Source of the DNA: Bacteroidota bacterium
GTDB lineage: Bacteria; Bacteroidota; Ignavibacteria; SZUA-365
Direction: 5' to 3'
NCBI GenBank assembly: GCA_023432805.1
Contig: JAEYUG010000033.1
Span: 2,654-66,653 of the forward strand
Length of the DNA: 64,000 nt
The notes under the pieces: generated by a model
Told to the model about the DNA's origin: nothing
Databases searched by the model: none
The model's input: the letters and a program-made list of their open reading frames with translations, nothing else
Made by a program: the position numbers and the translations under genes
Part shown: piece after piece, positions 3,324-41,431 of the stretch
Layout of the letters: every line of letters starts with the position of its first letter
How positions within the stretch are numbered: position 1 is the stretch's first letter

Positions 3324-4117
3324 GCTTCGCTCTCGGGATTGCTGTTGACGATCACATGCCAGCGCCGATCAGAGGAATACCCTCGAGCAGGTTCCCTGAC
3401 ATCCAGCCTCGTCCTGTAGACCTTTCGGCCGCGCAGCCAATCATGCATTCCACGCAGAAGTGCGGGATCTGCGATCTGCTCCAGGAGCCACCCCGCGCGT
3501 TGCACAATGCTGATATCAGGTTCATGGCGGGCAGCATCGAGAAGATCGTCACTCGTCATGGTCGCACACAATTCATCGAGCACGGTCAGCACTGCGTCGA
3601 GACCTCCGATCGTCGAAGCGAATCTTATACAGTCCATGACCGTGGCACCGCGCGTCGAAACGGGTATCCACCCCGAGAAACCCCTGACGCTCTCGATCTG
3701 CGTCTGTTCGCATGCAACTTTGCGGAAAAAGCGGATTCTGAGCACCGGCGTACGAACGGGACGGATGGTCGTGGGTACGACGACGTGGTGTTCCTGTGGC
3801 TGCTGATGCCCCGCCCCGTGCAGTGCTGCCGCTGACAGCACGCCGACGTAATAGGGAACGCCCAGAAAACGCATCAAGTCTTCGATGTACCAGTCCAGAG
3901 GGATCATGCCACTGGATCGGTACTCCAGAGGAGTGATCGCATAGAATCCACGCCGAAGCCTGTGAATCCTGCCGTTGCGATGCAGACGCTGCAGTGCCTT
4001 GGTCAACGACTCGGGTGCCAACCCGAGCACGGATTCCACTTCGTTACGTGTGAACGAGTATCGCGCGCCCTGCTGAAGAGCATCGACATAGTCTGCGAGT
4101 GATTGCGTGCCTTTCAT
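3320..4117 (-). CDS. abiEi: AbiEi-family antitoxin / transcriptional autoregulator
   Basis: MKGTQSLADYVDALQQGARYSFTRNEVESVLGL... winged-helix N-terminus typical of AbiEi; start chosen at the ATG (4117) so that the upstream inverted repeat lies in the promoter. Confidence 0.75.
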   Translation of the reverse strand: MKGTQSLADYVDALQQGARYSFTRNEVESVLGLAPESLTKALQRLHRNGRIHRLRRGFYAITPLEYRSSGMIPLDWYIEDLMRFLGVPYYVGVLSAAALHGAGHQQPQEHHVVVPTTIRPVRTPVLRIRFFRKVACEQTQIESVRGFSGWIPVSTRGATVMDCIRFASTIGGLDAVLTVLDELCATMTSDDLLDAARHEPDISIVQRAGWLLEQIADPALLRGMHDWLRGRKVYRTRLDVREPARGYSSDRRWHVIVNSNPESEA

Positions 4118-4133
4118 GCTCCAAAAATAGCAC

Positions 4134-4156
4134 AAGTGGACGTATTAAGTCCACTT
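4134..4156. promoter_or_regulatory. Perfect 8-bp inverted repeat AAGTGGAC-N7-GTCCACTT in the AT-rich region upstream of abiEi; candidate AbiEi autoregulatory operator
   Basis: Seen directly; AbiEi proteins are known to bind inverted repeats in their own promoters. Confidence 0.4.
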
Positions 4157-4198: not shown

Positions 4199-4942
4199 TT
4201 ATTTGCGGAGGGCGGCCTTGGAGAAGAGGGATTCGGGGATGGACTGGTCGAAGGCGATGTCGGTGATGCGGAATTCGGTGCCGTCGCCGTCCTTGAGCAT
4301 GTCTCTGAACACGGCCACCATCGGAAACCACCTGGCGCCGATGCGGCGTACGTCGCTGTACTCGGTCTTCTTGAGCAGCTGTCCGCTGCGCGCGGAAAGT
4401 TCCTCCTTCAACGGCACGAGCCGCTCGCGATCGATCCACATGGTGCGACGCTGGTACGCGACGTCGGGCACCTTCGCCGTGAGCGCGAGCACCCAGCACG
4501 CACGCTCGTCGACGGTGGCTTCCCCCGTGAGCTCGGCGTCGTAGACCTCGGTCAGCTTGCGGTCTTCCATCATGTCCTCATAGGAGAGATCCGACCCCAT
4601 CACCGACTGCCGCAGCATGTGTCCCGAAATCTGAATCGTGCGGTCGGTCGCGGGGGTGTAGATCCAGAGCTGTCCCTCGAGCTTGAGCATCTTCGTGCCC
4701 TTCTCGCGCGCGGGCGAGAGGTACTCGGTCAGCGCGCGGGTCGAGCCTTCGGACCAGGATTTCGCGGTGACGGTGCGGTCCCCGCGGCGGGTGTGGATCA
4801 CCATCGTCGCGGTGTGCACGCGGTTGCGCGAGGAGAGGTTGCGCTCGACGCGCGCGAGGATGTCGTCGGCCGTGGGCTTCTGCGCAACGGCCGGGGGTGC
4901 CAGCAGCGCAAGCACGAGCAGAACGAGAAGGGGACGCATCAT
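4199..4942 (-). CDS. LolA-like outer-membrane lipoprotein-sorting / carrier-fold protein with signal peptide
   Basis: MMRPLLVLLVLALLAPPAVAQ signal peptide; ~247 aa; ATGA overlap with the upstream permease; the long N-terminal extension of ORF 4199..5644 is spurious. Confidence 0.7.
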   Translation of the reverse strand: MMRPLLVLLVLALLAPPAVAQKPTADDILARVERNLSSRNRVHTATMVIHTRRGDRTVTAKSWSEGSTRALTEYLSPAREKGTKMLKLEGQLWIYTPATDRTIQISGHMLRQSVMGSDLSYEDMMEDRKLTEVYDAELTGEATVDERACWVLALTAKVPDVAYQRRTMWIDRERLVPLKEELSARSGQLLKKTEYSDVRRIGARWFPMVAVFRDMLKDGDGTEFRITDIAFDQSIPESLFSKAALRK

Positions 4943-9633: not shown

Positions 9634-10803
9634 ATGCCGCCGGAACTCTCCATATCGTTCACTGATGTCGTGCACGCACTGCTCGTGCTGTGTGCGGTGG
9701 CTTCCTCTGGGGGATTCGTTGCCACGGGTGTGGGACGTGCCCGCGCCCGGCGGCGGGAGGCGGAGTTCGTGCGGGCATCCGCCGCGCATGAAACCCCGGA
9801 TGTGATCCCCCCTCTCGTCTCGATCATCATCGCGGCGCATGACGAAGTGCAACGGATCCCGGCACTGATCGCGGCACTGCAGGCGCAGACGTATCCGCGG
9901 GAGCGGATGGACATCGTGGTGGCGGACGACCGATCCACCGACGGCACGGCGCAGGTCGTCGCGCACCTGGATCCCGCGGTGCGGATCGTGCGCATCGACG
10001 TGACGCCGGCAGGGGTCAGTCCGAAGAAGCACGCGCTGCATACGGCAATCGAGGCGGCGACAGCGGAGTTCCTGCTGTTCACGGATGCCGACTGCAGGCC
10101 GGGACCCGACTGGGTGCGCGCGATGGTGCGACGTCTCGCGGGCGGCGCGGAGGTGGTGGTCGGACTCTCTCCGGTCGATGGGATCCGCCACGGCGCGCAG
10201 CTGTTGCGGGGGTATGAAAGCGCGCGGGCATCGATGCTGATGGTGGCCGCGATCGGCTGGGAGGCGCCGTACATGAGTCTGGGTCGCAACTGGGGCTATC
10301 TGCGGCGGTCGTATGAGGCGGTGGGTGGACTTCCTTCCCTCGGTCATCATCTGGGCGGGGACGATGATCTGCTCTTGCAGCGCTACGTCTCAGCAGGAGC
10401 GCACATCGCTTCATGCACCGAGCGCGATGCCGCGTGTCCGACGGATCCTCCCGCCGGCTGGGGCGCGCTCCTGCGCATGCGGGTGCGGCATCTGCACGTG
10501 GCGGCGGCATACAGGGGGCGCGGCGCGCTGCTGCTCGCGGGCTTCGAACTCGCCGAGTTCATCACGATCTTCATCGCGCCCGCATGGTTCGTGGTCACGA
10601 CCGGCATGCATCCCCTGCTCGTCGCGGTGGTACTCGTCGCCAAGCTCTCCTACGACACGCGCTTCCTGCTGCCGGCCATGCGCGGGTTGCCGGGGCGCGG
10701 TGGCATCTGCACGCGACTCATCATGATCCTTCTCGAGCCGCTGCATGTCGCGTCCACAGTACTGTTCTCCGTTCTAGCACCTCTGCTGAGATCCCGATGG
10801 TAG
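9634..10803 (+). CDS. Family-2 glycosyltransferase with N-terminal TM and C-terminal TM helices (polyprenyl-phosphate sugar synthase-like)
   Basis: SIIIAAHDE...VVADDRSTDGT...FTDADC motifs of GT-A fold; hydrophobic C-terminal segments. Confidence 0.85.
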   Translation: MPPELSISFTDVVHALLVLCAVASSGGFVATGVGRARARRREAEFVRASAAHETPDVIPPLVSIIIAAHDEVQRIPALIAALQAQTYPRERMDIVVADDRSTDGTAQVVAHLDPAVRIVRIDVTPAGVSPKKHALHTAIEAATAEFLLFTDADCRPGPDWVRAMVRRLAGGAEVVVGLSPVDGIRHGAQLLRGYESARASMLMVAAIGWEAPYMSLGRNWGYLRRSYEAVGGLPSLGHHLGGDDDLLLQRYVSAGAHIASCTERDAACPTDPPAGWGALLRMRVRHLHVAAAYRGRGALLLAGFELAEFITIFIAPAWFVVTTGMHPLLVAVVLVAKLSYDTRFLLPAMRGLPGRGGICTRLIMILLEPLHVASTVLFSVLAPLLRSRW

Positions 10804-13061
10804 ACACGCATTCACGCTCACGCAGCGCTGTGAAACGCAGCGCTGTGAAACACAGCGCCGGGCAACGCAACACCGGGCAACGCAGCGCCGGGCAACACAG
10901 CACAGCGTACGATGCATTGGCACTCGTGCTCATTCTCTGGCATGCCGTCCTGCTCGTACTCTCCCTTGTCGGTGGTGAGACGCTGCGACTCTGGGGCATC
11001 GACGCAGCCGGCATGATCTGGACGCATCCCGTCTCCCTCGTGCTGACCGGCGCCGCACTCGCGTACGTCCTCACCCTGCGCACGCGTCCCATGCACCGCA
11101 TGCTCGCTCACCCCGCCACACCTGCGGTGCTGCTCGGTCTCGTCGTCACCGGACTGGCTGTCATCGCCCTGCTGCAGCTCGGTCGCGGCGGGGTGCCGCC
11201 CCTGCTCGGGGATGGCGCGCTCTACCGCAGCGAGGTCCTTCGTCTCGGTCTGATTCCCGACCACGTGCCGATCTTCCTCAAGCCATCAGCGATGCTCACG
11301 GGCCCGATCCTTCTAACGCTCGTGCAGCTGACCGGAACGGCACATCCAGCAGCACCCTTCCTGCTGCTCGGACTGATCGCGCTCGTGCTCGTCGTCGGGC
11401 GCATCCTTCTTCTCGCACGTCGCCACGGTGCCGCGGGCGTGCTGCCGTTCGTGGCAGCGCTTCTGCTCACGCCGGCCTGGCTGCTGCTCTGCGGAAGCAT
11501 CGAACTCTACGCACTCCCGCTCGCCGCGGTGATCTGGCTGCTTGCGGAATTGATAACCGCCGTGCAGCATGATACTGCACGCATGACACCGATCATCATC
11601 GCCACCATTGTCGCGCTTGCAACCTCGCTCTCCGCGATCGCGCTGCTTCCCCTCAGTACATGCGTGCTCGCGTACCTCTGGTGCGTGCGCAAGGGACACG
11701 ACTGCAGCCTGCGCGCAGCGGTGCTGATCGCCATCACCGCCTCAGCTGTCGTGGCCGTTGCGGTCGTGTTCCGCGACGTGCTCGGTCTCGGCGCCTACCT
11801 GCTCCCGCCCTCCGCTGCACGGTATGTGCACGACGGTGTCGACTACGGCATCGTCCAGTACTCCATCCTTCACCCGGCGCATCTGGCGGATGCGGGCAAC
11901 ATGCTGCTGCTGGTCGGCGGCGCGTGGCTTCCCCTCGCGGGGGCGGTGCTGCTCGTGCGCCGCTGGCGCGAGGCGCTGCCCGTGCAGGTGCTGGGTTTCA
12001 TGCTGGTCGCGGCCGCGTCCTCCCTCCTCACACTTCTGTGTGCGAACGCGGCGCTCGGCATGGAGCGGGACTGGGATCTGCTCGTCGTGCCCCTGCTCAT
12101 GCTGCCGGCCTCGGCCGCCGCGATGCTCGCATCGCTCGCGCGCAGGGACGCCGCCGCGGTGCTGCGCATCCTGCCGCTGCTCGTGCTGCTCGGTGGGGCA
12201 ACGACGCATGCGTGGATCGCGGTGCAGACCGACGTGCCCACCGCGACCGACAGGCTGCTGCGCGCGATCGACCGCGACGCGCCGCTGCTGCGTGCCGATT
12301 TCACCTATTACGGCTACGAGAATCTGCGCAAGCAATTCCGCAGCGACGGCGACGACGCGGGCGTGCACGCGATGTACATGCGCATGCTCGCCACCGGGTA
12401 TCGCGCGAGCGACACGTATGAAAAGCTGCTCGCGCTGCAGTACAACACACGCAATGTGCCCGCGGCATGGATCGACGAGGTGGGCTCCTCGCTGCGCACA
12501 CGCATCGCGCGGCCGTCCCGTCGTGGCACGCACGGATTTCTCGATCGCAGGGAGCTCGGAGAACTCGCGGCACAACTGGTGGCGCAGACGGCGCGCCTCG
12601 GGGATGTGACGCGTGCGGCCATGTGGGCGGATCGGTTCGCCGAGGACTTCGCAGAGGGATGGAAGGAGGAGGCATTCGCGCGCGTGTGGCTTTCGCAGGG
12701 TGCGACCCCGCAGCAGACGGCGGAAGCCGTCTTCGCAAGCATCGACTCGACGGCACGCAGCAGCAACACGCTCTTCATGGCGGCGGTGATGTTGAAGGAC
12801 GCAGGCGCGTACGACACCGCGGCGGCATATCTCGCATGGGCGATCAAGCGGAATCCCGTCGAACACCCGATCTACTATCTGCACCGGGCGCGGCTGCTGC
12901 TGCATGTGGGACGCGTGGACGAGGGACATGCCGTCCTGCTCGCCTGTCTTTCACGGTGTCACGATCCCGCGCGTGCCGAGGAAGCGCGCGCACTGCTCGC
13001 ACAATCGGGGTATATTGGTCGTTCCCCCAAACCATTTTCGAAAGGTCGCACGTCGTGCTGA
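10797..13061 (+). CDS. Large polytopic membrane protein with C-terminal soluble TPR-like domain (GT-C / DUF2723-like glycosyltransferase candidate)
   Basis: 754 aa; >10 predicted TM segments then helical repeat region (LAWAIKRNPVEHPIYYLHRARLLLHVGRVDEGHAVL); start overlaps the GT2 stop (ATGGTAG). Confidence 0.65.
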   Translation: MVDTHSRSRSAVKRSAVKHSAGQRNTGQRSAGQHSTAYDALALVLILWHAVLLVLSLVGGETLRLWGIDAAGMIWTHPVSLVLTGAALAYVLTLRTRPMHRMLAHPATPAVLLGLVVTGLAVIALLQLGRGGVPPLLGDGALYRSEVLRLGLIPDHVPIFLKPSAMLTGPILLTLVQLTGTAHPAAPFLLLGLIALVLVVGRILLLARRHGAAGVLPFVAALLLTPAWLLLCGSIELYALPLAAVIWLLAELITAVQHDTARMTPIIIATIVALATSLSAIALLPLSTCVLAYLWCVRKGHDCSLRAAVLIAITASAVVAVAVVFRDVLGLGAYLLPPSAARYVHDGVDYGIVQYSILHPAHLADAGNMLLLVGGAWLPLAGAVLLVRRWREALPVQVLGFMLVAAASSLLTLLCANAALGMERDWDLLVVPLLMLPASAAAMLASLARRDAAAVLRILPLLVLLGGATTHAWIAVQTDVPTATDRLLRAIDRDAPLLRADFTYYGYENLRKQFRSDGDDAGVHAMYMRMLATGYRASDTYEKLLALQYNTRNVPAAWIDEVGSSLRTRIARPSRRGTHGFLDRRELGELAAQLVAQTARLGDVTRAAMWADRFAEDFAEGWKEEAFARVWLSQGATPQQTAEAVFASIDSTARSSNTLFMAAVMLKDAGAYDTAAAYLAWAIKRNPVEHPIYYLHRARLLLHVGRVDEGHAVLLACLSRCHDPARAEEARALLAQSGYIGRSPKPFSKGRTSC
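10821..10895 (+). repeat. In-frame 15-bp imperfect tandem repeat x5 (cgcagcgctgtgaaa / cacagcgccgggcaa) encoding RSAVK/RSAGQ/RNTGQ pentapeptides at the 5' end of the membrane-protein gene
   Basis: Seen directly in sequence. Confidence 0.8.
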
Positions 13062-13903
13062 CGGTATCGGATTCTGATTCCCTGCGTTCGAGCCTCCCTG
13101 CGGGTGCGGCGCATCCCGACCGGGTGCGCTGGCAGCGCGCGGTGGATACAGCGACAGAGCGCGGGATGCTCGTGGCCGATCTGCTCGGGTCTGTCCTGTC
13201 GCTCGCTGGGACGCGGGTCCTGGACTGCGGATGCGGGGCAGGTGGCACCTCGGCTGCACTGCGGATGCATGGTGCGCACGTCGTCGCCTTCGACGTGCAT
13301 GCGGCGCGGCTCGCAATGACGCGCGCGCGCGACAGCGCGCTCGTGCTCTGCGGAGGTGATGCGGCGGCGCTTCCCTTCGCACGCGGCGTGTTCGACGCGG
13401 TCGTGCTGCAGGATGTGCTCGAGCATGTCGAGGATCCCGCCCACGTATTGGCCGAATGTGCACGTGTCGTGCGAGATGGCGGCGTCGTGTACCTGTCCAC
13501 GCCCAACCGGTGGTCTCCGGCGACGGTGGCTTCCGACCCGCACTTCGCGTTGCCGCTCGTGGGTGTGCTGCCACGCGCGGGACTCCGCCGGGTGCTCCGC
13601 CGGCTGCGTCCCACCGAAGCCGCGCGGCGCGATCTTCCGCAACTCCTTTCCTTTTCCTCGCTCGAGAGGCTGGCCCGGGAGGCCGGCTTCGCGCTGGCCT
13701 TGTGCAATCGCGCAGTGGCGCACATGCTGCAGGTGCATCCCGCGCGGGTGGTGTGGAGCGCAGCGCATCTGGCGCTCGTCGGCGTGCTGCATCGGCTGGG
13801 CGCGATGCGGCTGGTGGAGCTGGCGGCAAGCGATGGACGCGGCATGCGTACACGCTGGCTGGCGCCGGCCTGGTACTGCCTGCTGCATCGGGAGACGCGA
13901 TGA
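13055..13903 (+). CDS. Class I SAM-dependent methyltransferase
   Basis: VLDCGCGAGG motif I, FDAVVLQDVLEHV; GTG start at 13055 overlaps the previous stop (GTGCTGA); ATG at MLVADLLG is the alternative. Confidence 0.75.
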   Translation: MLTVSDSDSLRSSLPAGAAHPDRVRWQRAVDTATERGMLVADLLGSVLSLAGTRVLDCGCGAGGTSAALRMHGAHVVAFDVHAARLAMTRARDSALVLCGGDAAALPFARGVFDAVVLQDVLEHVEDPAHVLAECARVVRDGGVVYLSTPNRWSPATVASDPHFALPLVGVLPRAGLRRVLRRLRPTEAARRDLPQLLSFSSLERLAREAGFALALCNRAVAHMLQVHPARVVWSAAHLALVGVLHRLGAMRLVELAASDGRGMRTRWLAPAWYCLLHRETR

Positions 13904-14916
13904 TGCGCGCGCGCACGCTCTGGAATCTCGCGCGCACGGCAACGCTGCGGCGTGCGGTGAACGTCGTGCGGATCACGGCGGCGCAGCTGGTGTCGGCGAC
14001 GCTGCATCGTCCCGTGGTGTGGGGAATGCCGTGGACGCTGACAATCGAGCCCACGAACCGCTGCAATCTCGCGTGTCCCGAATGTCCCAGCGGAAACGGT
14101 TCGCTCGTGCGTCCCCTGGGTTCGATGACTCTCGAGCGCTTTCGGCGTCTCGTCGACGAGGTCTCCCCGCACGTCTTCTATCTCCAGCTGTACTTCCAGG
14201 GAGAGCCGTTCATCAACAAGTCCCTCGCGGAAATGGTCGCCCACGCGCATCGCCGCCGGATGTACACTGCGATCAGCACGAACGCGCATTTTCTGCGTGC
14301 CGAGACCGCGCGCGCACTGCTGGATGCGGGACTCGACCGCCTGATCGTGTCGGTCGACGGCACGAGCGAGGAATCCTATCAGACCTATCGCGTTGGCGGC
14401 ACTTTTGCTGCCGTGCTGCGCGGACTCGATGCCCTTGCGGCCGAACGGCGTGTGCATGCACGGGGGAAGCGTCTGGAGCTTGTCGTGCAGTTTCTCGTCA
14501 CCAGGCAGAACGAGCACGAGATCGACTCCGTGCGGAAGCTGGCCGCGGCCTATGATGCGTCGCTCGCACTGAAGACAATGCAGGTGTATTCGGTGGAAAG
14601 TGCCGAGGCGTTTCTACCTCGGGATGAGAGGTATCGACGGTACCTGGTGCGCGACGGGGAGCTGGTGATGAAAGGACGTATGGCAAACCGCTGTGCGCGG
14701 TTGTGGGATCGAAGTGTCATTACGTGGGACGGCGTGGTCGTGCCCTGCTGTTTCGACAAGAATGCCGAGCATGCGGTGGGATCGCTGGATGATGGCGCAT
14801 TCGAGGAGGTGTGGACGGGCGAAGCGTTGCAGGGGTTTCGTGCGCGCGTGCTGAGCGACCGCCGCGGCGTGCCCATGTGCACCAACTGCACCGAGGGATT
14901 GCGGGTGTACCGATAG
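13900..14916 (+). CDS. Radical SAM enzyme with C-terminal SPASM-type cysteine cluster
   Basis: CNLACPEC (CxxxCxxC) near N-terminus; C-terminal CxxxxxC...CC...CxxC cysteines (VVPCCFDK ... CTNCTEG); ATGA overlap with the methyltransferase. Confidence 0.85.
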   Translation: MMRARTLWNLARTATLRRAVNVVRITAAQLVSATLHRPVVWGMPWTLTIEPTNRCNLACPECPSGNGSLVRPLGSMTLERFRRLVDEVSPHVFYLQLYFQGEPFINKSLAEMVAHAHRRRMYTAISTNAHFLRAETARALLDAGLDRLIVSVDGTSEESYQTYRVGGTFAAVLRGLDALAAERRVHARGKRLELVVQFLVTRQNEHEIDSVRKLAAAYDASLALKTMQVYSVESAEAFLPRDERYRRYLVRDGELVMKGRMANRCARLWDRSVITWDGVVVPCCFDKNAEHAVGSLDDGAFEEVWTGEALQGFRARVLSDRRGVPMCTNCTEGLRVYR

Positions 14917-14922
14917 ATCACC

Positions 14923-14954
14923 GGGAGGACGGACGCCCTCGTCCGTCATTGACG
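14923..14954. repeat. GC-rich palindromic intergenic element (REP-like), copy A: GGGAGGACGGACGCCCTCGTCCGTCATTGACG
   Basis: 8-9 bp stem GGACGGACG/CGTCCGTCC; same core recurs at 5 other loci in this window. Confidence 0.8.
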
Positions 14955-15822: not shown

Positions 15823-15852
15823 GGGGAGACGGACGGGGGCGTCCGTCCTCCC
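15823..15852. repeat. REP-like element copy B, inverted orientation (GGGGAGACGGACGGGGGCGTCCGTCCTCCC), followed by TTGTACGGGGGGG
   Basis: Reverse complement of the core with 2 mismatches. Confidence 0.7.
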
Positions 15853-15978
15853 ATGGGATCTACCTTGTACGGGGGGGTATGGGGTGGTATTTTGACTCCA
15901 ACTGAACATCCGAACGAATCGTTGATCAGCGGTGTTCTGTAAGACAACGCCGTCAACGATTGAACGAAGATAGAATCC

Positions 15979-18603
<2,625 letters not shown>

Positions 18604-18606
18604 GCA

Positions 18607-18635
18607 GGAGGACGGACGCCCTCGTCCGTCCGTCC
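18607..18635. repeat. REP-like element copy C immediately after the clpC stop
   Basis: GGAGGACGGACGCCCTCGTCCGTCCGTCC. Confidence 0.75.
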
Positions 18636-18689: not shown

Positions 18690-18720
18690 CGGGGCGGCCA
18701 CTGGCCGCCCCGCTCTGTTT
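18690..18720 (+). terminator. Intrinsic terminator after clpC (CGGGGCGGCC-actg-GGCCGCCCCG followed by CTCTGTTT)
   Basis: Perfect GC stem plus T-tract. Confidence 0.6.
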
Positions 18721-18730
18721 CACGCATCGC

Positions 18731-19279
18731 TCATCGAAGAATGATCACCATCCGTTGTACGACAGATGCTCCCGAGCGGATCCGGAGCACGTATGATCCT
18801 GGCGAAAGCTCGGGAGCATGCAGTCGGATATGCGAGGGACCTGCAGGAAGCAGCTCGTCTGCGACCGTCAGGATGGTCGTGCCCAGCAGCGTGTGCAAAG
18901 TCACCTGTGTATGGGCTGCTCGTGGATTCATGATCTCGATGGTCGTGCTCCCGCGGGAGGGATTCGGGTACACGCTTCCGATGATGATCGATGCCGGCAC
19001 CGTCACAGCTTCCGCGGAGATGACAGTCGAAGCCGTGTCGCACAACACGCATCCATAGCCGGAATGGAGTATGGTGCCTGCTGAAGCCGCAGAATCCACC
19101 GCACCCTGTCCGGGCACGGATCGGGCAGTCCATGATGCACTTGTACTCACGCCCGCGCCGCTTGCAATCAGATCCGCAATGATGCGGAAGGACGCAGACT
19201 GTTGCGCATGCAATGGGACTGCCGACACGAACAGCATGCAGAGGCATGCAAGCGCAGCCCCCCGTCGTCGGGGTGTCAT
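18731..19279 (-). CDS. Small secreted protein consisting essentially of a signal peptide and a T9SS type-A C-terminal sorting domain
   Basis: Signal peptide [26 protein letters not shown]; C-terminus SVYPNPSRGSTTIEI...GSYVLRIRSGASVVQRMVIIL is a T9SS CTD; 4-nt overlap with the collagen-like gene. Confidence 0.55.
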   Translation of the reverse strand: MTPRRRGAALACLCMLFVSAVPLHAQQSASFRIIADLIASGAGVSTSASWTARSVPGQGAVDSAASAGTILHSGYGCVLCDTASTVISAEAVTVPASIIIGSVYPNPSRGSTTIEIMNPRAAHTQVTLHTLLGTTILTVADELLPAGPSHIRLHAPELSPGSYVLRIRSGASVVQRMVIILR

Positions 19280-21159
19280 CGCGCACCTCGCCATGGTTGC
19301 CGGCTGCCGGACTGCCAGTGCGGGGTCTGCGCGGCAGGGAGCTTCCCCCGGGTGGGGGCGGCCGTGTGGTGTGGACGCGGTACGCGGGCGTCGGGATCCG
19401 CTGCGGAGCCTCGGTCTGAGGCGACGTTGTGTTCCTCCAATCTCACATCTTCATAGCCCCTTCGCTTCGCACTGATCTGGTAGTCGAAGGGGATGGTCGC
19501 GTGACCTCCGCCGAGCTCACGCACGACAAAATGGTCGGGGGCCTTGTGGGCGATGTAGAGTCCTGCACAGTCGCCCCCCGGGGTCAGGATGATCTGTGGG
19601 AGATGCTCGGCATCGATGGTGACGGTTTCGCGGAAGATGGGATCGATCGGTACGATTGCCTCGCCGTCGCGCAGCGTGGCCGTGCCGAAATCGGTATAGC
19701 GCACGTCGGCTGCCTCGACTGCGTACATGCGGCGTGTGCCGTAGGACGTGGTCTTGACGATGTTGTTCTTCGTGCCGGTGAAGAAGAAGTCGCCCATGGG
19801 ATTCAGATGACCGACGAAGCCTCCGGTCGGGGATTTGATGGTGAGTCCCTCGAGCGGTGAGATTTCGAGGATGTTTCCATTTTCGAGGGGGATGCGGATG
19901 CCGGCCCAGTAGGTTTCAAGGCCGGAATGCTCGGAGGTGCCGTCTTCGTGGAAATCGACGAGTTTATTGCCTGCGGCATCGACAATGTGCAGGCTGCGGA
20001 AGTAGCCTTCGCCTGTCATATCGATAGCAGCGACCTTGTTGCCGAGCGTGTCGTAGACGGACACGCCGTCGGAGCCGAGCACGATGCCACCATCGTTGTT
20101 CGGGTTGTACACACCGATCGAAGAACCCCGCAGCCAGCCACCGTGGAGCCAGGTCGTGTCGCGGTAGCCGGTTGCGGGATCGTGATAGGTGTACTGCTCG
20201 AGCAGGCTGTGGCGAGACCCGGTCGTATCGAAACCGATGAGCTCGACGCGTCCTGCAGGATCGGTCAGATCGCCCTTGACGATGTGCAGGCTGCGGAAGT
20301 ATCCCTCTCCCGTCGAATCGATGAACCCGTTGACGGCGAGTCCGTCGGTGATGAGGATCTGGCGTGTAGCCACGCCGTCCTTCGTCAGCACGGTACTCCT
20401 GGACGTTGGCAGGTCGCCACCGACGCTGATGCCGTCGTGGTAGTGCTCCCATCCGATGTGTTCGGAAGAGCCTGTGACGATGAGGGTGTCGACGACGAGG
20501 CGGGAGAGTGTATCGAGCACGATCAGTGTGTCGACCGTGAGTCTGGTGATCGTGTCGGGAACGCCGGCAGGTCCGGCGGGTCCGGCAGGTCCGGCAGGAC
20601 CAGCGGGACCAGCGGGACCAGCGGGACCGGCAGGACCAGCGGGACCAGCGGGACCGGCAGGACCAGCGAGACCGGCAGGACCGGCAGGGCCGGCAGGTCC
20701 CGGAGGCAGGGGGTGTTTGAGCGAATCCGCATACAGCGCGACCATGGCGAGCGGCACGGGCTGCAGCGGGATCGGCGGTTCGAGCACTTCGCCGTTGACG
20801 GTCAGACGCAATGCAGCACGCGTTTGAAAGATCAGTGGATTGAGTGGATTGTTGAGTGTGTCGACGCTTCCGATGGCGTGTTCGAAGAGCCCGTTCGAGA
20901 CCATGAGGTTCGAGACGGTTTCCTCGAACAATATCGGGTTTCCGGGACGCGTCAGATCCACGATGGTGAACCGAACGCTCAACGCGCCATTGTAGCGCGA
21001 ACCATCGGGTTTCGTCAGGCAGCCCTGATAGTGGAAGACGCGCTGAACGGTTGGAGACGGGCGGTCGGCGCTGCGGTCAGGTAGGGACGTCTGCGCGTGA
21101 AGCACGCACGACAACAGCAGGCAGCATGCGGCGCTGCCAATGTATTTCGCAAGGTGCAT
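19276..21159 (-). CDS. Collagen-like triple-helix repeat protein with signal peptide ([10 protein letters not shown]...), C-terminal region of unknown fold
   Basis: [23 protein letters not shown] signal; about 16 uninterrupted Gly-Pro-Ala triplets; the C-terminal ~60 aa are Arg/Pro-rich and look like an out-of-frame tail. Confidence 0.7.
20564..20706. repeat. 9-bp tandem repeat array (ccggcaggt / ccagcggga variants) encoding (GPA)n
   Basis: Seen directly. Confidence 0.9.
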
Positions 21160-22557: not shown

Positions 22558-22579
22558 CAGGTTGCGTCATCACAAAGAT

Positions 22580-22631
22580 GGGAGGACAGACGCCCTCGTG
22601 GGAGGACGGACGCCCTCGTCCGTCATTGACG
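22580..22631. repeat. REP-like elements, copy D (one degenerate plus one full copy in tandem) between tatD and lptB
   Basis: GGGAGGACAGACGCCCTCGT GGGAGGACGGACGCCCTCGTCCGTCATTGACG; the 3' flank TTGACGAATGTACAGGGG resembles copy A's TTGACGCATGTTCAGTGG. Confidence 0.8.
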
Positions 22632-22657: not shown

Positions 22658-23425
22658 CTACAGACGAAACAGTCGACGGGCGTTGGCGGTGGTGACGGCA
22701 GCGAGGTGCTCGACACTGCAACCGCGCACGCCCGCAATGTACGCGGCGATGCGCGGGATGTGCATCGGCTCGTTCCGCTTCCCCCGGAATGGCACGGGTG
22801 TCATGAACGGCGCATCGGTCTCGAGCAGCAGACGGTCGTCGGGCACGAGGCGGATCACTTCGTCGAGATCCACCTTCTTGAATGTGACGTTGCCCGTGAA
22901 CGAGATGTGAAATCCCAGATCGAGCACGCGGCGGGCGACGTCGGCATCGCTTGAGAAGCAGTGGAACTGTCCCGCGAGCGCACCACGCTGAAACGAGCGG
23001 CAGATGTCGATGATGTCGTCATCGGCCTCGCGGTTGTGGATCACCACGGGCAGCGAGAGGCGCAGCGCCAGTGCAAGCTGTTCGCCAAGCACGCGCTGCT
23101 GCACGTCGGGCGTACAGAAATCGTAATGATAGTCGAGGCCGATCTCCCCGATGGCAACTGCCTTCTCGTGCAGGGCGGCGCGCTCGACCGTGGCGAGGTA
23201 GTCCGCCGGCAGCGCACCTGCGTCGTGCGGATGCACGCCGGCGGTGAACCATGCATCCGCGAATTCGCGAGCGATGGCTTCCGCCTGATGCATCGTCTCC
23301 AGCGTGGTGGCCGGTACGACAACGCGCGTGACACCCTCGGCGCGGGCGCGTGCGAACACGGCATCGAGATCGTCCTCGAAATCCTCCCAGAAGAGGTGAC
23401 AGTGGGTATCGACAAATTCGGTCAT
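22658..23425 (-). CDS. tatD: TatD-family metal-dependent hydrolase (DNase)
   Basis: MTEFVDTHCHLFWEDFEDD...; ATGA overlap with upstream gene. Confidence 0.9.
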   Translation of the reverse strand: MTEFVDTHCHLFWEDFEDDLDAVFARARAEGVTRVVVPATTLETMHQAEAIAREFADAWFTAGVHPHDAGALPADYLATVERAALHEKAVAIGEIGLDYHYDFCTPDVQQRVLGEQLALALRLSLPVVIHNREADDDIIDICRSFQRGALAGQFHCFSSDADVARRVLDLGFHISFTGNVTFKKVDLDEVIRLVPDDRLLLETDAPFMTPVPFRGKRNEPMHIPRIAAYIAGVRGCSVEHLAAVTTANARRLFRL

Positions 23426-24660
23426 GCGGAGCCGGAGTAAAAGGACATGGCGGCGAAGGTCACACCCGATGCGCGCTCCTCCTCATGCCACTGTTCGTAG
23501 GCGAGCAGGCGTCCGTGCGCGGGATGGGTCAGATCGAAGAAGGTCGTGATGCAGGCGTATCCATCGATGCGCGTGGCATTGCCATGCGCGCGCAGCAACC
23601 GCTCGAAGCCGGCGTGATCGCCGCGTGCGAGTGCCTCGAGCTGTGCCTGATCGCTCGCGCGCACCTCGGCGAGCATGTCGCATGCGTCGCGCTCGTCACC
23701 GAACTTGCGGCCGATGTGCGACCAGTCCACACTCATCAGGTACACCACGCGGCGTCCGAGGTCCCCGATGGCGCCCTGCACGGCGTCGATGAAGGTCCGA
23801 TACCGCTGATCCTCGCGCGGCGACGTGCCCGCATGCAGATGCTGCTCCATCGACGTACAGAGCACGGGCACGATGCGGAAGGTGCGATCGGCGAAGGCAT
23901 GCTGCAGAAAGAGCACCGGGAATTCGATCGAATGTTCGGGCCGGTGCGCGATGTCGTTGCGTGTGAACACATCCCCCGACCGCTCGCGGATGCGCGCCAC
24001 CAGCTCGGTATCGGTATGGCAGACGCCGAGCGGCGTGCGGTAATGCTTCGACGTGAGAATGAACGTGTCTTCATCCGAATAGTGACTCGTGCCGAGCAGC
24101 ACCACGGTGTCGAACTCCGCATTGCCGAGCGCGCGGATGGCGGGCACGTAGACGGCGGGACCGACCTGCAGATCGATGTGCGGCGTGATGACACCGACAG
24201 GCGCTTCGCGCGGGATCTCGCCATGGTTGGCGGTCATGTGTGCACGCAGGAAGCCGTCGAGCGCATCCGGATCATCATCGTACGAGGCACCGGCGTGCAC
24301 CGCTTCCCTGATGGGAAGCGCCCGCCACGCATCCTCGACTTCCTGCCGCCGGGCACGGAAGCGGTCATCGTCGAGCAGGAGATTGTCGGCAAGCGCGCGT
24401 GCGAGTTCGGCTACGGAGGCTTCCGCAATGTCGATGCGGTGTTCGGCGCGAAGCATTGCACAGAGGTCGGCCGCGGAGCGCGATCCATCCATCAGCATGA
24501 GCAGGGCCCAGGCCTCCGGACGCAGGCGCATCATCCGATCGGAGTAGCCGTGGGGATCGCGAAGGACGATGAAGGATTCGCCGTCCTGCTCGAGCGGGAA
24601 GGCGTCGAGGTCGCGGCGCAGCGGGGAGAGGATGCGCGAGGGTGTGGCGTCAGGGTGCAT
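23422..24660 (-). CDS. MEMO1-family protein (AmmeMemoRadiSam system protein B-like)
   Basis: ITPHIDLQVGPAVY...VVLLGTSHY...VDWSHIG motifs; start MHPDATPS at 24660; upstream part of ORF 23422..25236 is out-of-frame overlap with the ATPase gene. Confidence 0.75.
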   Translation of the reverse strand: MHPDATPSRILSPLRRDLDAFPLEQDGESFIVLRDPHGYSDRMMRLRPEAWALLMLMDGSRSAADLCAMLRAEHRIDIAEASVAELARALADNLLLDDDRFRARRQEVEDAWRALPIREAVHAGASYDDDPDALDGFLRAHMTANHGEIPREAPVGVITPHIDLQVGPAVYVPAIRALGNAEFDTVVLLGTSHYSDEDTFILTSKHYRTPLGVCHTDTELVARIRERSGDVFTRNDIAHRPEHSIEFPVLFLQHAFADRTFRIVPVLCTSMEQHLHAGTSPREDQRYRTFIDAVQGAIGDLGRRVVYLMSVDWSHIGRKFGDERDACDMLAEVRASDQAQLEALARGDHAGFERLLRAHGNATRIDGYACITTFFDLTHPAHGRLLAYEQWHEEERASGVTFAAMSFYSGSA

Positions 24661-25639
24661 CGGGACGGCAGGGTTCGTACAGGAGGCAGCGTACGTGATG
24701 TCCCTCGCCGATGTCGGCCATGCGCGGCACGATCTGCGAGCAATCGGCGAAGCGCTGCGGGCAGCGGGTGTGGAAGGGGCATCCTTCGGGCACGTCGACG
24801 GGGATCGGAACATCGCCCTCGAGGAGGATGCGTTCGCGGCGGCGACGCGGATCAGGCACGGGCGCCGCGAGGATGAGGGCAGCCGTATAGGGATGCAGGG
24901 GCTCGTGCATGACGCGTTCGGCGCTGCCGAGCTCGACAATGCTGCCGAGGTACATGACGGCGATGCGGTCGGCGATGTGACGTACGACGGCAAGGTCGTG
25001 GCTGATGAACAGGTACGAAAGGCCGAAGGACCTGCGCAAGTCGAGCAGGAGGTTGAGGATCTGTGCCTGTATCGAGACGTCCAGTGCGGAGACGGGCTCA
25101 TCGCAGAGAATGAAGTCGGGCTCGACGGCGAGGGAACGGGCGATGCCAATGCGCTGGCGCTGTCCGCTGGAGAATTCATGCGGATAGCGCCGCATGTGGA
25201 AGCTGTTGAGTCCCACGATGTCGAGCAGTTCCGCAACGCGCGTGTCGCATGCGTCGGCGGGTACGATATCGTGCACCATGAGCGCTTCCCGGATTGCGCT
25301 TCCGACAGATATCCTGGGATTCAGAGACGCGTGGGGATCCTGAAAAATGATCTGCGCGCGCTTGCGGAAGGACTTGAGCGCGGAACCACGGAGCTGTGTC
25401 ACGTCGATGCCGTCGAAGGTGACATTGCCCGCAGTGGGCTTGAGCAGGCAGAGGATGATGCGTCCGAGCGTGCTTTTGCCACAGCCGGATTCGCCGACAA
25501 GCCCGAGAATCTCCCCGCGATGGACGCAGAAGCTCACGTTGTTGACAGCCTGCACGTACCCGGAGATCTTTGAGAAGATGCCGCGCCGGATGGGGAAACG
25601 CATTCCGACCTCGCGCACCTCGACGAGCGACGATCCCAT
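24650..25639 (-). CDS. Oligopeptide/dipeptide-type ABC transporter ATP-binding protein (OppF/DppF-like), orphan
   Basis: GESGCGKSTLGR Walker A, LSGGQRQRIGIARSLAVEP, C-terminal CPFHTRCP...C cysteine motif; no permease or SBP adjacent. Confidence 0.8.
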   Translation of the reverse strand: MGSSLVEVREVGMRFPIRRGIFSKISGYVQAVNNVSFCVHRGEILGLVGESGCGKSTLGRIILCLLKPTAGNVTFDGIDVTQLRGSALKSFRKRAQIIFQDPHASLNPRISVGSAIREALMVHDIVPADACDTRVAELLDIVGLNSFHMRRYPHEFSSGQRQRIGIARSLAVEPDFILCDEPVSALDVSIQAQILNLLLDLRRSFGLSYLFISHDLAVVRHIADRIAVMYLGSIVELGSAERVMHEPLHPYTAALILAAPVPDPRRRRERILLEGDVPIPVDVPEGCPFHTRCPQRFADCSQIVPRMADIGEGHHVRCLLYEPCRPDAP

Positions 25640-34072: not shown

Positions 34073-34450
34073 TTACTTGACAAGCTCGCCCGATGCGGTG
34101 CGCAGGCGCACGAAGCCGCGCTGATGCAGCTGCCGGAAGAAGGCGGCGATGCGGTCATGCACGGGCTCGACCTCTTCGCCGTATTCGGTGCGCAGACGCT
34201 CGGCGATCACGCCCACGTCGGTCGCGCCGTCGATCGCGTTCCATACGTGCGAACCGAAGGCATCGAGCTTGATGCGGATGTAGGGGTACTTGCGCTTCGG
34301 GACAAGATGCTTCTGCATCCAAGGGATGTGGAAGCGGGGCATGTCGACTTCGACGATGCCCTCGTCGTTCGTCGCGGAAGTCCAGCAACGCTCGGGCACG
34401 AGCTCGAGCAGATTCAGGTCGGGACGCGGTGTGCGTGAAAAGAGAGGCAT
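34073..34450 (-). CDS. PqqD-family protein (RiPP recognition element-like peptide chaperone), standalone
   Basis: C-terminal ~60 aa GSHVWNAIDGATDVGVIAERLRTEYGEEVEPVHDRIAAFFRQLHQRGFV matches the PqqD/RRE pattern (w..lDGk.tv.ei...l..ey.....e...dv..fl..L...gll). Confidence 0.6.
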   Translation of the reverse strand: MPLFSRTPRPDLNLLELVPERCWTSATNDEGIVEVDMPRFHIPWMQKHLVPKRKYPYIRIKLDAFGSHVWNAIDGATDVGVIAERLRTEYGEEVEPVHDRIAAFFRQLHQRGFVRLRTASGELVK

Positions 34451-39307: not shown

Positions 39308-40429
39308 TTACAGCGAGATGTCGATACGCGGTGCGCCGCTGGATGTGAGCAAGTTCTGGCTGATGCGTCCCGCGAGCGTGAGCGCAGTATCGTGAACGCT
39401 GCGTGCGACGGCGCCTTCGGGTTCGAGCACGACGATGGGCACACCCTTGTCGCCGCCCTCGCGGATGCGGCGCTCGATGGGGATTTCCCCGAGGAAGGGC
39501 ACGCCGAGTTCACCGGCTGCCTCGCGGCCGCCACCGTAGCTGAAGATTTCGTCGCGATGGCCGCAGTTCGAACAGATGTGGAAGCTCATGTTCTCGATGA
39601 TGCCGAGAATGGGAACGTTGACCTTCTCGAACATGCGCACGCCCTTACGGGCGTCGGCCAGGGAGATATCCTGCGGCGTGGTGACGATCACGCTGCCGGT
39701 CAGGGGCAGCATCTGCGAGAGTGTGAGCTGGATGTCGCCGGTGCCCGGAGGCATGTCGAAGAGCAGGTAGTCGAGTTCACCCCAGTCGACGTCGGTGAGG
39801 AACTGCTTGAGGGCACCGCTGGCCATGGGTCCCCGCCACACCACCGCCGTATCGGGGTCGATGAGGAAGCCGATGGACATGACCTTCACACCGTGGTTCT
39901 CGCAGGGAAGCAGGCGGGTCTTCCCGCCCTCGACATAGGCCGAGGGCTGCTCGGTGATGCCGAACATCATCGGGATACTGGGACCGTAGATGTCAGCATC
40001 GACGAGTCCCACCCGCGCTCCGTTCTGCGCGAGGGCGACGGCGAGGTTGACGGCGACGGTGCTCTTGCCCACGCCGCCCTTGCCGCTCGAGACGGCGATC
40101 GTGTTCCGGACGCCGGGCAGCAGCTGTGCGAGCTGGGCGCTCTGCTGCGAGGGGATGTCGTCGGTGTTGGTGATGCGGATGCTGCCGACCGCGGGCAGGT
40201 GCCTGCGCAGTGCAGTCTCGATCTCGGCGGTGAACGACGAGGCGATCGCACGCGAGGGCACGGGCATGGCGAGCGTGAGGCTCACGTCGCTGCCTGTGAT
40301 GGTGATGTCACGCAGCATGTTCGCCGTGACGGGGTCGATGGACATGTAGGGAGCCTGCACGACGCGGAGCGCGGTGCGGACATCATTGTCATTGAATGCG
40401 GCTGTATTGGACATGTGTATCCTGTGCAA
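39308..40429 (-). CDS. apbC: Mrp/ApbC Fe-S cluster carrier ATPase with N-terminal DUF59
   Basis: AVSSGKGGVGKSTVAVNLAVALA deviant Walker A; CxxC (CSNCGHRD); TTG start per ORF track. Confidence 0.9.
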   Translation of the reverse strand: MHRIHMSNTAAFNDNDVRTALRVVQAPYMSIDPVTANMLRDITITGSDVSLTLAMPVPSRAIASSFTAEIETALRRHLPAVGSIRITNTDDIPSQQSAQLAQLLPGVRNTIAVSSGKGGVGKSTVAVNLAVALAQNGARVGLVDADIYGPSIPMMFGITEQPSAYVEGGKTRLLPCENHGVKVMSIGFLIDPDTAVVWRGPMASGALKQFLTDVDWGELDYLLFDMPPGTGDIQLTLSQMLPLTGSVIVTTPQDISLADARKGVRMFEKVNVPILGIIENMSFHICSNCGHRDEIFSYGGGREAAGELGVPFLGEIPIERRIREGGDKGVPIVVLEPEGAVARSVHDTALTLAGRISQNLLTSSGAPRIDISL

Positions 40430-40508
40430 TCGTGGAGGTGCTGTGTATCATTGAAAATTACTGCACCCCCCCATCCCGTACAACCCACCCCGGGAGGCCG
40501 GCTGCCCG

Positions 40509-40612
40509 CTGGGCGGACGGACGCCCTCGTCCGTCATGGGAGGACGGACGCCCTCGTCCGTCATGGGAGGACGGACGCCCCGCTGGGAGGACGGACGCCC
40601 TCGTCCGTCATT
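40509..40612. repeat. Tandem array of 4 REP-like units (27-bp period TGGGAGGACGGACGCCCTCGTCCGTCA; third copy truncated), preceded by CCCCCCATCCCGTACAA
   Basis: Seen directly; lies in the divergent region between mrp (-) and the SDR gene (+). Confidence 0.85.
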
Positions 40613-40627
40613 TGTGTATATTTGACG

Positions 40628-41431
40628 ATGCATGGTTCGGCCTTGATGAATTCGCGAATTCTCATTACCGGCGCGTCGGCGGGCATCGGCCGCGCCACGG
40701 CGCTCGCGTGTGCCGCAGCAGGTGCGCAGCCCGTTCTGGTGGCCCGCTCCGCTGATGCCCTCGATGCACTCGTCGCCGACATCACGCAACTGCACGGCAT
40801 CACCGCCGTGGCCCTCCCCTGCGACGTGCGCGACGTCGGGCGATTGCAGTCGCTGCTGCAGGAGGAGGACGACAGGGCCCCGATCGACCACATCGTCGCC
40901 AACGCCGGGGTGGGGATGTACGGTCCCTTTGCCACTGCGCAGTGGGCGCAGATCGACGACGTGCTGCGCACGAACATCGATGGTGCGCTCGCGCCCGTGC
41001 ATGCCCTGCTCGCCCGGATGCTCTCGCGCAGGCGCGGTTCGATCGTCTTCGTCTCTTCGGTACTCGGCAAGCGCGCACTCGCGTGGAATGCAGTGTACTC
41101 GGCCAGCAAGCATGCGCTGCACGGACTGGCCGACGCGCTGCGTCTCGAGGTTTCCACGCACGGCATCCATGTCGGCGTGGTGTGTCCCGGACGCACGCGA
41201 ACGCAGTTCCAGACGCGCATGCACACGAGCGCCGCCCCGTCGCGCCGTCGTGCCGTTCCGGAGGCTTCCCCCGGGGAGGTGGCGGCGGCAATCGTCGGCT
41301 GCATCACGCGCCGCCGGCGTGAAGTGGTGGTTCCCTATTCCTCACTTGCCTATACGCTCGTCGGTGTGCATGTTCCCCGGCTGGCGGATATTCTTCTTTC
41401 ACGAGCCGTTCCCCGACCTCATGGCCATTAA
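40628..41431 (+). CDS. Short-chain dehydrogenase/reductase (SDR) family oxidoreductase
   Basis: ILITGASAGIGRATA ... NAGVG ... YSASKHAL. Confidence 0.85.
   Translation: MHGSALMNSRILITGASAGIGRATALACAAAGAQPVLVARSADALDALVADITQLHGITAVALPCDVRDVGRLQSLLQEEDDRAPIDHIVANAGVGMYGPFATAQWAQIDDVLRTNIDGALAPVHALLARMLSRRRGSIVFVSSVLGKRALAWNAVYSASKHALHGLADALRLEVSTHGIHVGVVCPGRTRTQFQTRMHTSAAPSRRRAVPEASPGEVAAAIVGCITRRRREVVVPYSSLAYTLVGVHVPRLADILLSRAVPRPHGH

Follow-up and report, generated by a model that had tools for sequence, protein, structure and literature searches.

Gene context and anatomy of the array

The stretch of DNA that was analysed, hereafter the window, is 64,000 nucleotides long and contains, at 40490–40610, a 121-bp array of short palindromic units in the intergenic region between two divergent genes, those of the Fe–S cluster carrier ATPase Mrp and of a short-chain dehydrogenase/reductase (SDR) (Table 1). 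The host, with a G+C content of 63%, is an uncultured member of Bacteroidota sensu lato (Ignavibacteria/Kapabacteria-like); the named homologues of its Mrp and MlaE proteins come from Bacteroidota, Ignavibacteria and Kapabacteria MAGs, and two kinds of protein from the type IX secretion system, Por_Secre_tail and PorV, are also encoded on the contig.

Five units make up the array, arranged head-to-tail with a spacing of 0 nt, three of them being full 27-mers and two being truncated to 20 nt. The consensus of the full units, which start at 40510, 40537 and 40584, is TGGGAGGACGGACGCCCTCGTCCGTCA. Each such unit consists of an unpaired GGAG tag and a perfect, G+C-rich 8-bp stem, GACGGACG/CGTCCGTC, closed by a 4-nt CCCY loop, such that the full units of the array form the hairpin GACGGACG-CCCT-CGTCCGTC. 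The degenerate first unit, u0, reads CCGGGAGGACGGATGCCCGC in two other contigs that cover the locus (L001 and L002) and is there of the same type as u3. The latter possesses an orphan 5′ arm that is able to pair with the 3′ arm of u2, and inter-unit hairpins of this kind, in which the 3′ arm of one unit meets the 5′ arm of the next, are found at 40528–40550 and 40555–40577. The region as a whole folds better than all of its 200 shuffled counterparts (z = −3.4). With up to three mismatches the 27-mer occurs seven times in the window, as against none in 100 shuffles, and its 15-mer core nine times, as against 0.42 expected.

The first-pass annotation had described this locus, between divergent mrp and SDR genes, as a head-to-tail minisatellite of REP-like hairpins which, lacking spacers, was not CRISPR-like. 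The gene context is as stated there and the array reads exactly as reported, chance being ruled out by the shuffles; the units do abut (Tandem Repeats Finder: 40510–40611, period 27, 4.0 copies, score 148), and their hairpin character is borne out both by the perfect 8-bp stem-loops and by a dispersed family at five loci. The number of units given was four and has to be raised to five, since the truncated u0 had been overlooked. An open reading frame on the + strand (40396–40755) that runs through the array, with GRPRPSWEDGRP repeats, was judged spurious. No tRNA or tmRNA lies near the array, and Rfam gave no match anywhere in the window at gathering thresholds, a sub-threshold match (ncS037, 25 bits against a cut-off of 112 bits) being treated as chance.

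Table 1. Repeat units of the window, with the genes and promoter-like blocks that flank the array.
Feature	Position	Strand	Description
REP copy	14922–14948	+	5 nt past the stop codon of a radical-SAM/SPASM gene, upstream of mlaE
REP copy	15827–15853	−	Inverted; in the interval from the mlaE stop codon to the clpB promoter
REP copy	18605–18631	+	1 nt past the clpB stop codon; 9-bp stem
Doublet	22579–22625	+	20-nt truncated plus full unit, head-to-tail; in the interval from the tatD stop codon to the ABC-ATPase (lptB-like) promoter
mrp/apbC	39308–40414	−	Fe–S cluster carrier ATPase gene; first gene of a mrp–nifU–NAD kinase run
mrp promoter-like block	40453–40483	−	TTGTACGGG (40483–40475), spacer, TAATTTTC (40460–40453); conserved; outside the repeat
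u0	40490–40509	+	Degenerate 20-nt truncated unit CCGGGAGGCCGGCTGCCCGC; tag and 5′ arm, no 3′ arm
u1	40510–40536	+	Full 27-nt unit; TGGGCGG in place of the consensus TGGGAGG
u2	40537–40563	+	Full 27-nt unit; matches the consensus exactly; 47.8 bits
u3	40564–40583	+	20-nt truncated unit TGGGAGGACGGACGCCCCGC
u4	40584–40610	+	Full 27-nt unit; adjoins the SDR promoter-like block; 48.9 bits
SDR promoter-like block	40611–40624	+	TTTGTGTATATTTG; conserved; contains a perfect TAnnTTTG box, of which the window has only two
SDR gene	40646–41431	+	Short-chain dehydrogenase/reductase; alternative start at 40628

Promoter-like blocks on either side of the array

Two parts of the intergenic region are invariant in the alignment of relatives, namely the 75 nt that adjoin mrp, with TAATTTTC and TTGTACGGG, and TTTGTGTATATTT adjoining the SDR gene, the mrp promoter-like block being the same in the window, L001, L004 and L006. 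We read these two blocks, from their sequence and conservation, as the core promoters of mrp and SDR, with the array as a variable spacer between them. The assignment relies on what we take to be the Bacteroidota −33/−7 consensus, a promoter type that the organism probably uses; a scan of 40000–41000 for sigma-70 promoters found none. Both core-promoter blocks lie outside the array, except that u4 takes in position −33 of the SDR promoter.

It had been proposed earlier that the sequence preceding the array is tied to the inverted copy through the region at 15853–15875. In this regard, the 9-mer TTGTACGGG is indeed an exact match, and within the window it occurs exactly only at 40475–40483 (−) and 15865–15873 (+). 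Beyond these nine bases, the likeness of the mrp and clpB flanks comes down to a G-run followed by a TAnTTTT box. Moreover, four relatives without the 15827 unit (L127–L130, 96% MlaE identity) keep TTGTACGGGGGGGCATGGGGTGGTATTTTGACTC upstream of clpB, where the promoter block is conserved. The CCCGTACAA flank is therefore promoter sequence and not repeat. In other words, the stretch CCCCCCATCCCGTACAA, which had been linked to the repeat, lies outside the element and corresponds to the conserved promoter block of mrp; relatives that have no repeat upstream of clpB keep the equivalent block there.

Dispersed copies of the unit

Beyond the array, the same unit recurs elsewhere in the window, such that seven full and three truncated units, ten in total, are distributed over five intergenic loci, the chance expectation being about zero. 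Four of the five loci lie 1–32 nt 3′ of a stop codon. The copy at 14922–14948 carries the 3′ extension TTGACGCATGT, and that at 18605 lies between convergent genes, where there is no promoter. The doublet, which has a period of 20, is closely related to the end of the array; 22578–22627 and 40563–40612 (u3 plus u4) are 92% identical, and thus a 47-nt module of a truncated and a full unit recurs. The repeat family D2 groups u0 with this doublet.

The GGAG tag is present in every full copy of the window except u1, which has GGCG (GGAG in L001), and it is found again in L004 and L128, being conserved across variants of the stem. Across the ten copies, pairing is kept in 97% of cells, and two base pairs are changed on both sides in a compensatory manner.

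A covariance model built from the ten copies found no further ones in 149 kb, including 19 kb of the same contig beyond the window (L137, 10 kb on the upstream side, and L136, 9 kb on the downstream side). The five known loci all lie within 26 kb, the remaining 57 kb of the 83 kb read containing none. REPs typically number tens to hundreds per genome; since the loci known here are few and clustered, any statement about the genome-wide abundance of the family is an extrapolation from these 83 kb. No direct duplication flanks any copy in the window, and no target-site signature or exact empty site is definable, the flanks having diverged. The GC skew across the 64 kb is uninformative on any strand bias of insertion. 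The idea of a sequence akin to a DNA uptake sequence was set aside, as the 9-mer arm GGACGGACG has only two occurrences outside the units and is not spread through coding DNA.

Turnover of units among relatives

At the mrp–SDR locus the closest sequence, L001 (ENA contig k141_17521), is 99.97% identical over 11.1 kb and contains an identical five-unit array, and a Logan contig of the same strain (L002) terminates inside u1. Two further relatives, L004 and L005, in which Mrp is 90% identical at the amino acid level (about 87% in nucleotides), have at least one unit, GGAGGACGGACGCCCTCGTCCGTCATTGAC, after which the contig breaks. In L006 (Mrp 88% in amino acids, about 84% in nucleotides) there is no array; a single unit is found at the matching position, its stem changed to GGTTGACG-CCCT-CGTCCACC by two compensatory base-pair changes, together with a different, inverted hairpin, GGCGGCG-AGA-CGCCGCC. 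This other type of hairpin, apparently in tandem, is also that of L138 (SDR 78% in amino acids), and L135 (Mrp 71% in amino acids) has a different neighbour gene and no repeat. It is evident from this comparison that three lineages share an orthologous unit next to the mrp promoter, with a stem that compensatory changes have preserved, and that the five-unit array is confined, among the relatives compared, to the lineage of the window.

The other loci are commensurate with this picture. Besides the absence of the 15827 unit in L127–L130, two of these relatives (L128 and L129) have an inverted variant, GGAG-CGCGGACG-CCCC-CGTCCGCA, upstream of mlaE at the contig end, and the more distant L131 and L132 have no such unit. 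Among close relatives, therefore, units are gained, lost, inverted or replaced.

These observations bear upon the suggestion, made in the first-pass annotation, that the array could be a hotspot of copy-number variation, and that relatives should be compared for it, an identical array fixed in all of them being the outcome that would speak against it. No such fixed array was found, and both the number and the type of units at the mrp–SDR locus differ between related lineages. No variation in unit number was seen within a population; both assemblies of the strain give one and the same count.

Comparison with known repeat families

In the survey of Di Nocera et al. 2013, REPs (repetitive extragenic palindromes) have stems of 6–13 bp, short loops and an unpaired tetranucleotide tag, and they fall into subfamilies that differ through complementary stem changes, occurring as singletons as well as in clusters (PMC3733652). 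They mostly lie downstream of ORFs, locations between divergent genes being a minority; tandem reiteration is known from some genomes, for example Pseudomonas, and head-to-tail dimers are a rare minority (PMC3733652). The family of the window shares with such repeats the short palindromic unit, here a 27-nt stem-loop, and the extragenic position, all five loci being intergenic and mostly past ORFs.

A close likeness is to the GTAG REPs that are associated with RAYT/TnpA_REP proteins, such as the REP/BIME elements of E. coli, the REPINs of Pseudomonas and the SMAGs of Stenotrophomonas, which share a unit of 20–40 nt, a stem-loop and a 5′ tag (PMC3733652, PMC6006769). The likeness extends to an extragenic position just past ORFs, stem subfamilies, singletons together with clusters, turnover between strains and tandem reiteration. 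The tag itself differs, since the variants accepted within the GTAG superfamily are GYAG, GYRG, GTRG, GTMG and GTGG, and a G at the second position falls outside them (PMC3733652). Moreover, inverted doublets are typical of REPINs and BIMEs, whereas the multi-unit loci here (22579–22625 and 40490–40610) are head-to-tail and the window contains no inverted pair. The host differs too, being Bacteroidota-like, a group for which the survey lists only CGTC-type repeats (PMC3733652); subclasses 2.4 and 2.6 of TnpA_REP are present in Bacteroidetes (PMC6006769).

The CGTC REPs, which occur in Bacteroidetes, Chlorobi and other phyla, resemble the present unit in their 8–9-bp stems, their 4–5-nt loops, the phylum and the lack of a known dedicated transposase (PMC3733652). 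Indeed, the reverse strand of the unit ends in CTCCCA, which is reminiscent of the CCA tail of these repeats. Their CGTC tag, however, is unpaired, whereas in the present unit CGTC is confined to the paired 3′ arm, and they have A–T at the first two stem pairs and are mostly head-to-head dimers, whereas here the first pair is G–C and the second A–T. Both in its tag and in the start of its stem, therefore, the unit departs from the CGTC superfamily.

With bacterial minisatellites, or VNTRs, the array shares the spacer-less head-to-tail layout, the 27-bp period, the intergenic position, differences between lineages and the likely involvement of slippage. Unlike that of a minisatellite, however, the present unit is not specific to its locus but belongs to a palindromic family with dispersed copies. 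CRISPR repeats are likewise short (24–48 bp), partly palindromic and in one orientation, but the present array has no spacers, includes truncated units and is built from a unit that is also dispersed as singletons; no cas genes are among the genes annotated here. Finally, MITEs measure 50–500 bp and have TIRs and target-site duplications, and the unit here has a length of only 27 nt, or about 38 nt with its TTGACGMATGT extension.

Origin and possible function of the array

Since its anatomy, position and turnover match those of the surveyed REPs, the array is filed among the REPs, as a cluster of head-to-tail units from a family specific to this lineage, an assignment that we regard as probable. 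It is, in other words, an ordinary kind of bacterial repeat, belonging to a REP family that has not been described before; the repeat sequence was found neither in a literature search nor in the supplements of PMC3733652. Single units would have been dispersed in trans by an HUH Y1 transposase, similar to RAYT/TnpA_REP, that recognises the hairpin and its tag and works on single-stranded DNA, and the local array would have arisen through slipped-strand mispairing or unequal recombination. Out-of-register hairpins between the 3′ arm of one unit and the 5′ arm of the next could in this way explain why some units are truncated to 20 nt and why the 47-nt module of a truncated and a full unit is duplicated. 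Most likely, the array is neutral or almost neutral for its neighbours, filling a variable spacer between two core promoters; at most it might serve as a spacer or a cruciform-prone insulator, or offer nucleoid proteins a place to bind, as the BIMEs of E. coli do.

Several observations count against assignment to the REPs. No gene of the Y1_Tnp/RAYT kind was found in 83 kb, that is in the window and 19 kb of the same contig (L136 and L137), among scanned and precomputed genes, nor was there one among those of L001. Pfam searches of small ORFs and of the genes flanking the repeats gave no RAYT either, nor did a phmmer search of all six-frame ORFs of the window with an approximate E. coli YafM query. 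To this are added the GGAG tag, which is not among the listed variants, the lack of inverted doublets, the small number and clustering of the loci, and the lack of a definable insertion signature. The compensatory changes could, moreover, instead reflect selection for a function of the hairpin as such.

Such a function, were it to exist, might be sought at the 3′ ends of transcripts, the hairpins being selected terminators or mRNA 3′-end stabilisers and the array a stack of terminators that insulates mrp and SDR from read-through or antisense transcription. The position of units just past stop codons at four of the five loci is in keeping with this, as are the stability and G+C-richness of the hairpin, the maintenance of the stem in relatives and the reports that REPs terminate transcription or stabilise mRNA (PMC3733652, PMC6006769); a consensus scan also flagged u4 (40590–40609) with ATTTGTGTAT as terminator-like. 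However, in the dispersed copies the stem is not followed by a U-tract, and u4, which alone is followed by a T-rich stretch, has no gene on the + strand reading into it. Indeed, no co-oriented gene reads into the array at all, mrp and SDR both pointing away, and copies are found pointing either way with respect to the gene before them. A further consideration is that a terminator-like hairpin distinct from the unit follows clpB at 18690–18712; in L132, clpB is followed by a classic hairpin and then a T-run. Close relatives, moreover, do without the 15827 copy. Independent terminators, furthermore, need neither identity over 27 nt nor a conserved unpaired tag. This explanation therefore appears unlikely as an account of the family, albeit that a terminator role could coexist with a REP origin, as an exaptation. 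Less probable still is that a dimeric transcription factor uses the palindrome as its operator, with the array co-regulating a stress or Fe–S regulon made up of mrp–nifU, SDR, clpB and the lptB-like gene. The 8–4–8 inverted repeat does have the geometry of a typical operator; at the mrp, clpB and lptB-like loci the unit lies 2–11 nt upstream of a −33-like element, with its GGAG end toward the promoter; and the TTGTACGGG motif is common to the mrp and clpB promoters. Against this stand the copies at 14922 and 18605, directly past stop codons, the latter lacking any promoter, the conservation of the clpB promoter in relatives that lack the unit, and the frequency of truncated half-units. Moreover, in relatives the bases of the stem change with the pairing kept, which is the opposite of what is expected of a sequence-specific operator, and an identical stem-loop occurs past ORF ends in unrelated soil bacteria (see below).

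The first-pass annotation had also raised the matter of an assembly artefact. In that case the array, or at least its unit count, would stem from a dispersed repeat that was collapsed or expanded during short-read metagenome assembly. Logan contigs of the k = 31 type, from the same and from related strains, do end inside or at the repeat. Moreover, over the 11.1 kb shared with L001 and L002 the window differs at three positions only, each an A-to-C difference (40498, 40502 and 40514) inside the first two units, a cluster suggestive of problems with base calling or the consensus where the hairpins lie; the three may be hairpin-induced sequencing errors or real micro-diversity. Set against this, two assemblies that differ at these three bases give an identical five-unit architecture, and the truncated units supply unique junctions. 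The k141_ contig names are presumably those usual for MEGAHIT at k = 141, and at that k, as suggested by the name, the 121-bp array and unique sequence on its flanks would fit into a single k-mer or a single 150-nt read. With two assemblies in agreement, an artefact is very unlikely, and the array remains best described as a REP cluster.

As such, the array reveals no new kind of system, and its value is mostly practical. The family accounts for breaks of short-read contigs at intergenic sites of the lineage and is liable to confuse predictions of promoters, terminators and sRNAs; at the same time, the 27-mer offers a lineage marker for contig recruitment or strain typing. It also extends the REPs by a family whose GGAG tag is unusual and whose layout is head-to-tail, from a poorly studied, uncultured branch of the Bacteroidota. 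Furthermore, the mrp-adjacent unit, which can be followed through three lineages as intact, amplified and with a compensated stem, constitutes a small natural experiment on the birth, maintenance and amplification of REPs.

The same stem-loop in other organisms

A scan of metagenomes with GGACGGACGCCCNCGTCCGTC as query returned at least 120 contigs, mostly from soil and peat and with 54–66% G+C. An identical 21-nt stem-loop, GGACGGACGCCC(T/C)CGTCCGTC, is found in L003, in L007–L126 and in one Lacunisphaera MAG, the contigs being probably from other phyla. Among the matches listed, there are no additional copies from the window's own lineage, a different, soil-borne family being dominant. A scan of representative genomes with a 24-mer gave a single match, in the unrelated Lacunisphaera MAG; therefore the host species is either absent from the representatives or present there as an assembly without the repeats. 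Viral contigs gave no matches.

With the unit of the window the soil family shares the 21-nt stem-loop, a purine-rich 5′ tag and a position after ORFs, copies often lying 0–30 nt past ORF ends among the matches listed (by a crude test). It differs in several respects. A C after the core extends the stem to 9 bp by one extra G–C pair, a conserved GnYCRY extension is present at the 5′ side, and a second hairpin follows, of variable sequence with the consensus GCCGAGCGAAGCTCGGC. The soil copies are, moreover, mostly singletons, with some inverted pairs (L058) and no head-to-tail arrays among the matches listed. One inverted pair, in L025, was considered as a REP-flanked element and rejected, since the whole contig is a palindromic assembly chimera.

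The tag that precedes the soil core is, among the matches listed, GTAG in 61 cases, GTGG in 24 and GGAG in 21 (about 17% for GGAG). As GGAG thus coexists with GTAG and GTGG on one and the same stem, the GGAG tag of the window, though not a strict match, is probably a variant of the GTAG tag.

A more far-reaching proposal, which we hold to be doubtful, is that the GGAG-tagged family is one previously unrecorded in a Bacteroidota-like lineage, with a stem-loop identical to that of a GTAG/GTGG/GGAG family of soil organisms from other phyla (Acidobacteria-like contigs and a Verrucomicrobial MAG), and that it grows mainly by a transposase-independent, head-to-tail and promoter-proximal route. Were this so, either a REP together with its cognate Y1 transposase would have been transferred between phyla, or related transposases would have convergently selected the hairpin, and loci of the mrp/SDR kind would be fast-evolving spacers between divergent promoters. 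Of the soil contigs, three contain Y1_Tnp-like ORFs, kilobases away from the hairpin, and one contains an Acido-Lenti-1 RNA.

Repeats at the mrp–SDR and mlaE intergenic sites

Accumulation of repeats at the intergenic site between mrp and the SDR gene is not confined to one lineage, since in a sister lineage the spacer is occupied by a different hairpin, GGCG(GCG)-AGA-CGCCGCC (contigs L006, 60-125, and L138, 1-50). This hairpin, which in L138 is apparently in tandem, is flanked by CATTCGTCAAC, a sequence matching in reverse complement the extension TTGACGAATG at window position 22626. Upstream of mlaE, at the position held by a REP unit in the window, the more distant relative L132 (83% MlaE identity) has a tandem array (about 4640-4800) in which GGCGCGTTACGCACCTGAGGTGAGGGGGC, a unit of roughly 33 bp, is repeated about five times, along with GAGGGC-type simple repeats.

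Comparison of the window with the independent contigs L001 and L002, the former near-identical and the latter from the same strain, reveals only three differences over 11.1 kb, at 40498, 40502 and 40514, all of them A-to-C. Each lies within the first two repeat units of the mrp–SDR array, and in each the base in the window is shifted off the repeat consensus. Such changes could be hairpin-associated errors of sequencing or consensus calling, or else real micro-diversity.

A promoter-like motif, consisting of TTGTACGGG, a G-rich spacer and TA(n)TTTT, is common to the regions upstream of clpB and mrp-nifU, and relatives that lack the repeat altogether have kept it. The motif may be a sign of a common regulon or of a sigma-factor-specific promoter.

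The hairpin in soil and peat metagenomes

Among the matches listed (metagenome contigs L007-L126), a 21-nt stem-loop identical to that of the window is found in an abundant soil and peat family, with the layout (G)nYCRY-GTAG/GTGG/GGAG + GGACGGACG-CCCY-CGTCCGTCC. Next to it, on the 3' side, comes another hairpin in which the pairing is kept and the sequence is variable (consensus GCCGAGCGAAGCTCGGC). The family corresponds to no Rfam family. Y1_Tnp-like ORFs occur on contigs L064, L067 and L070, none adjoining the hairpin. One further contig, L025 (Ga0137414_1161220), was considered as a REP-flanked element; all 5.3 kb of it form one near-perfect palindrome, whose arms match over their entire length, and it is therefore an assembly chimera, unfit as evidence for such elements.

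Other features of the window

Coordinates of motif sites, example copies and other features
Feature	Location	Remark
Hairpin family, example copies	L024 8321-8345; L058 3195-3312	
Promoter-like motif	15865-15895(+)	upstream of clpB
Promoter-like motif	40483-40453(-)	upstream of mrp-nifU
AbiEii/AbiEi toxin-antitoxin (abortive-infection type) gene pair	2535-4135(-)	directly downstream of katG (220-2409)
15-bp tandem repeat ACGCAGCGCCGGGAA, 5.5 copies	10820-10903	inside ORF 10413-13061(+)
9-bp-period repeat CCGGCAGGA, about 15 copies	20546-20734	inside ORF 19276-21159(-)
Several PqqD-domain and radical-SAM/SPASM genes, Memo-PqqD fusion	13456-14916; 23422-25236; 34073-34450	

The window's other perfect TAnnTTTG box (4122-4129(-)) lies at the start of the AbiEii/AbiEi pair. 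The PqqD-domain, radical-SAM/SPASM and Memo-PqqD genes suggest peptide-modification (RiPP-like) functions scattered over the region. Tandem repeats are also present within ORFs: the 882-aa ORF containing ACGCAGCGCCGGGAA has no Pfam match, and the Gly-X-Y tract specified by CCGGCAGGA is collagen-like (Pfam Collagen match) and belongs to a 627-aa protein adjoining a Por_Secre_tail protein.
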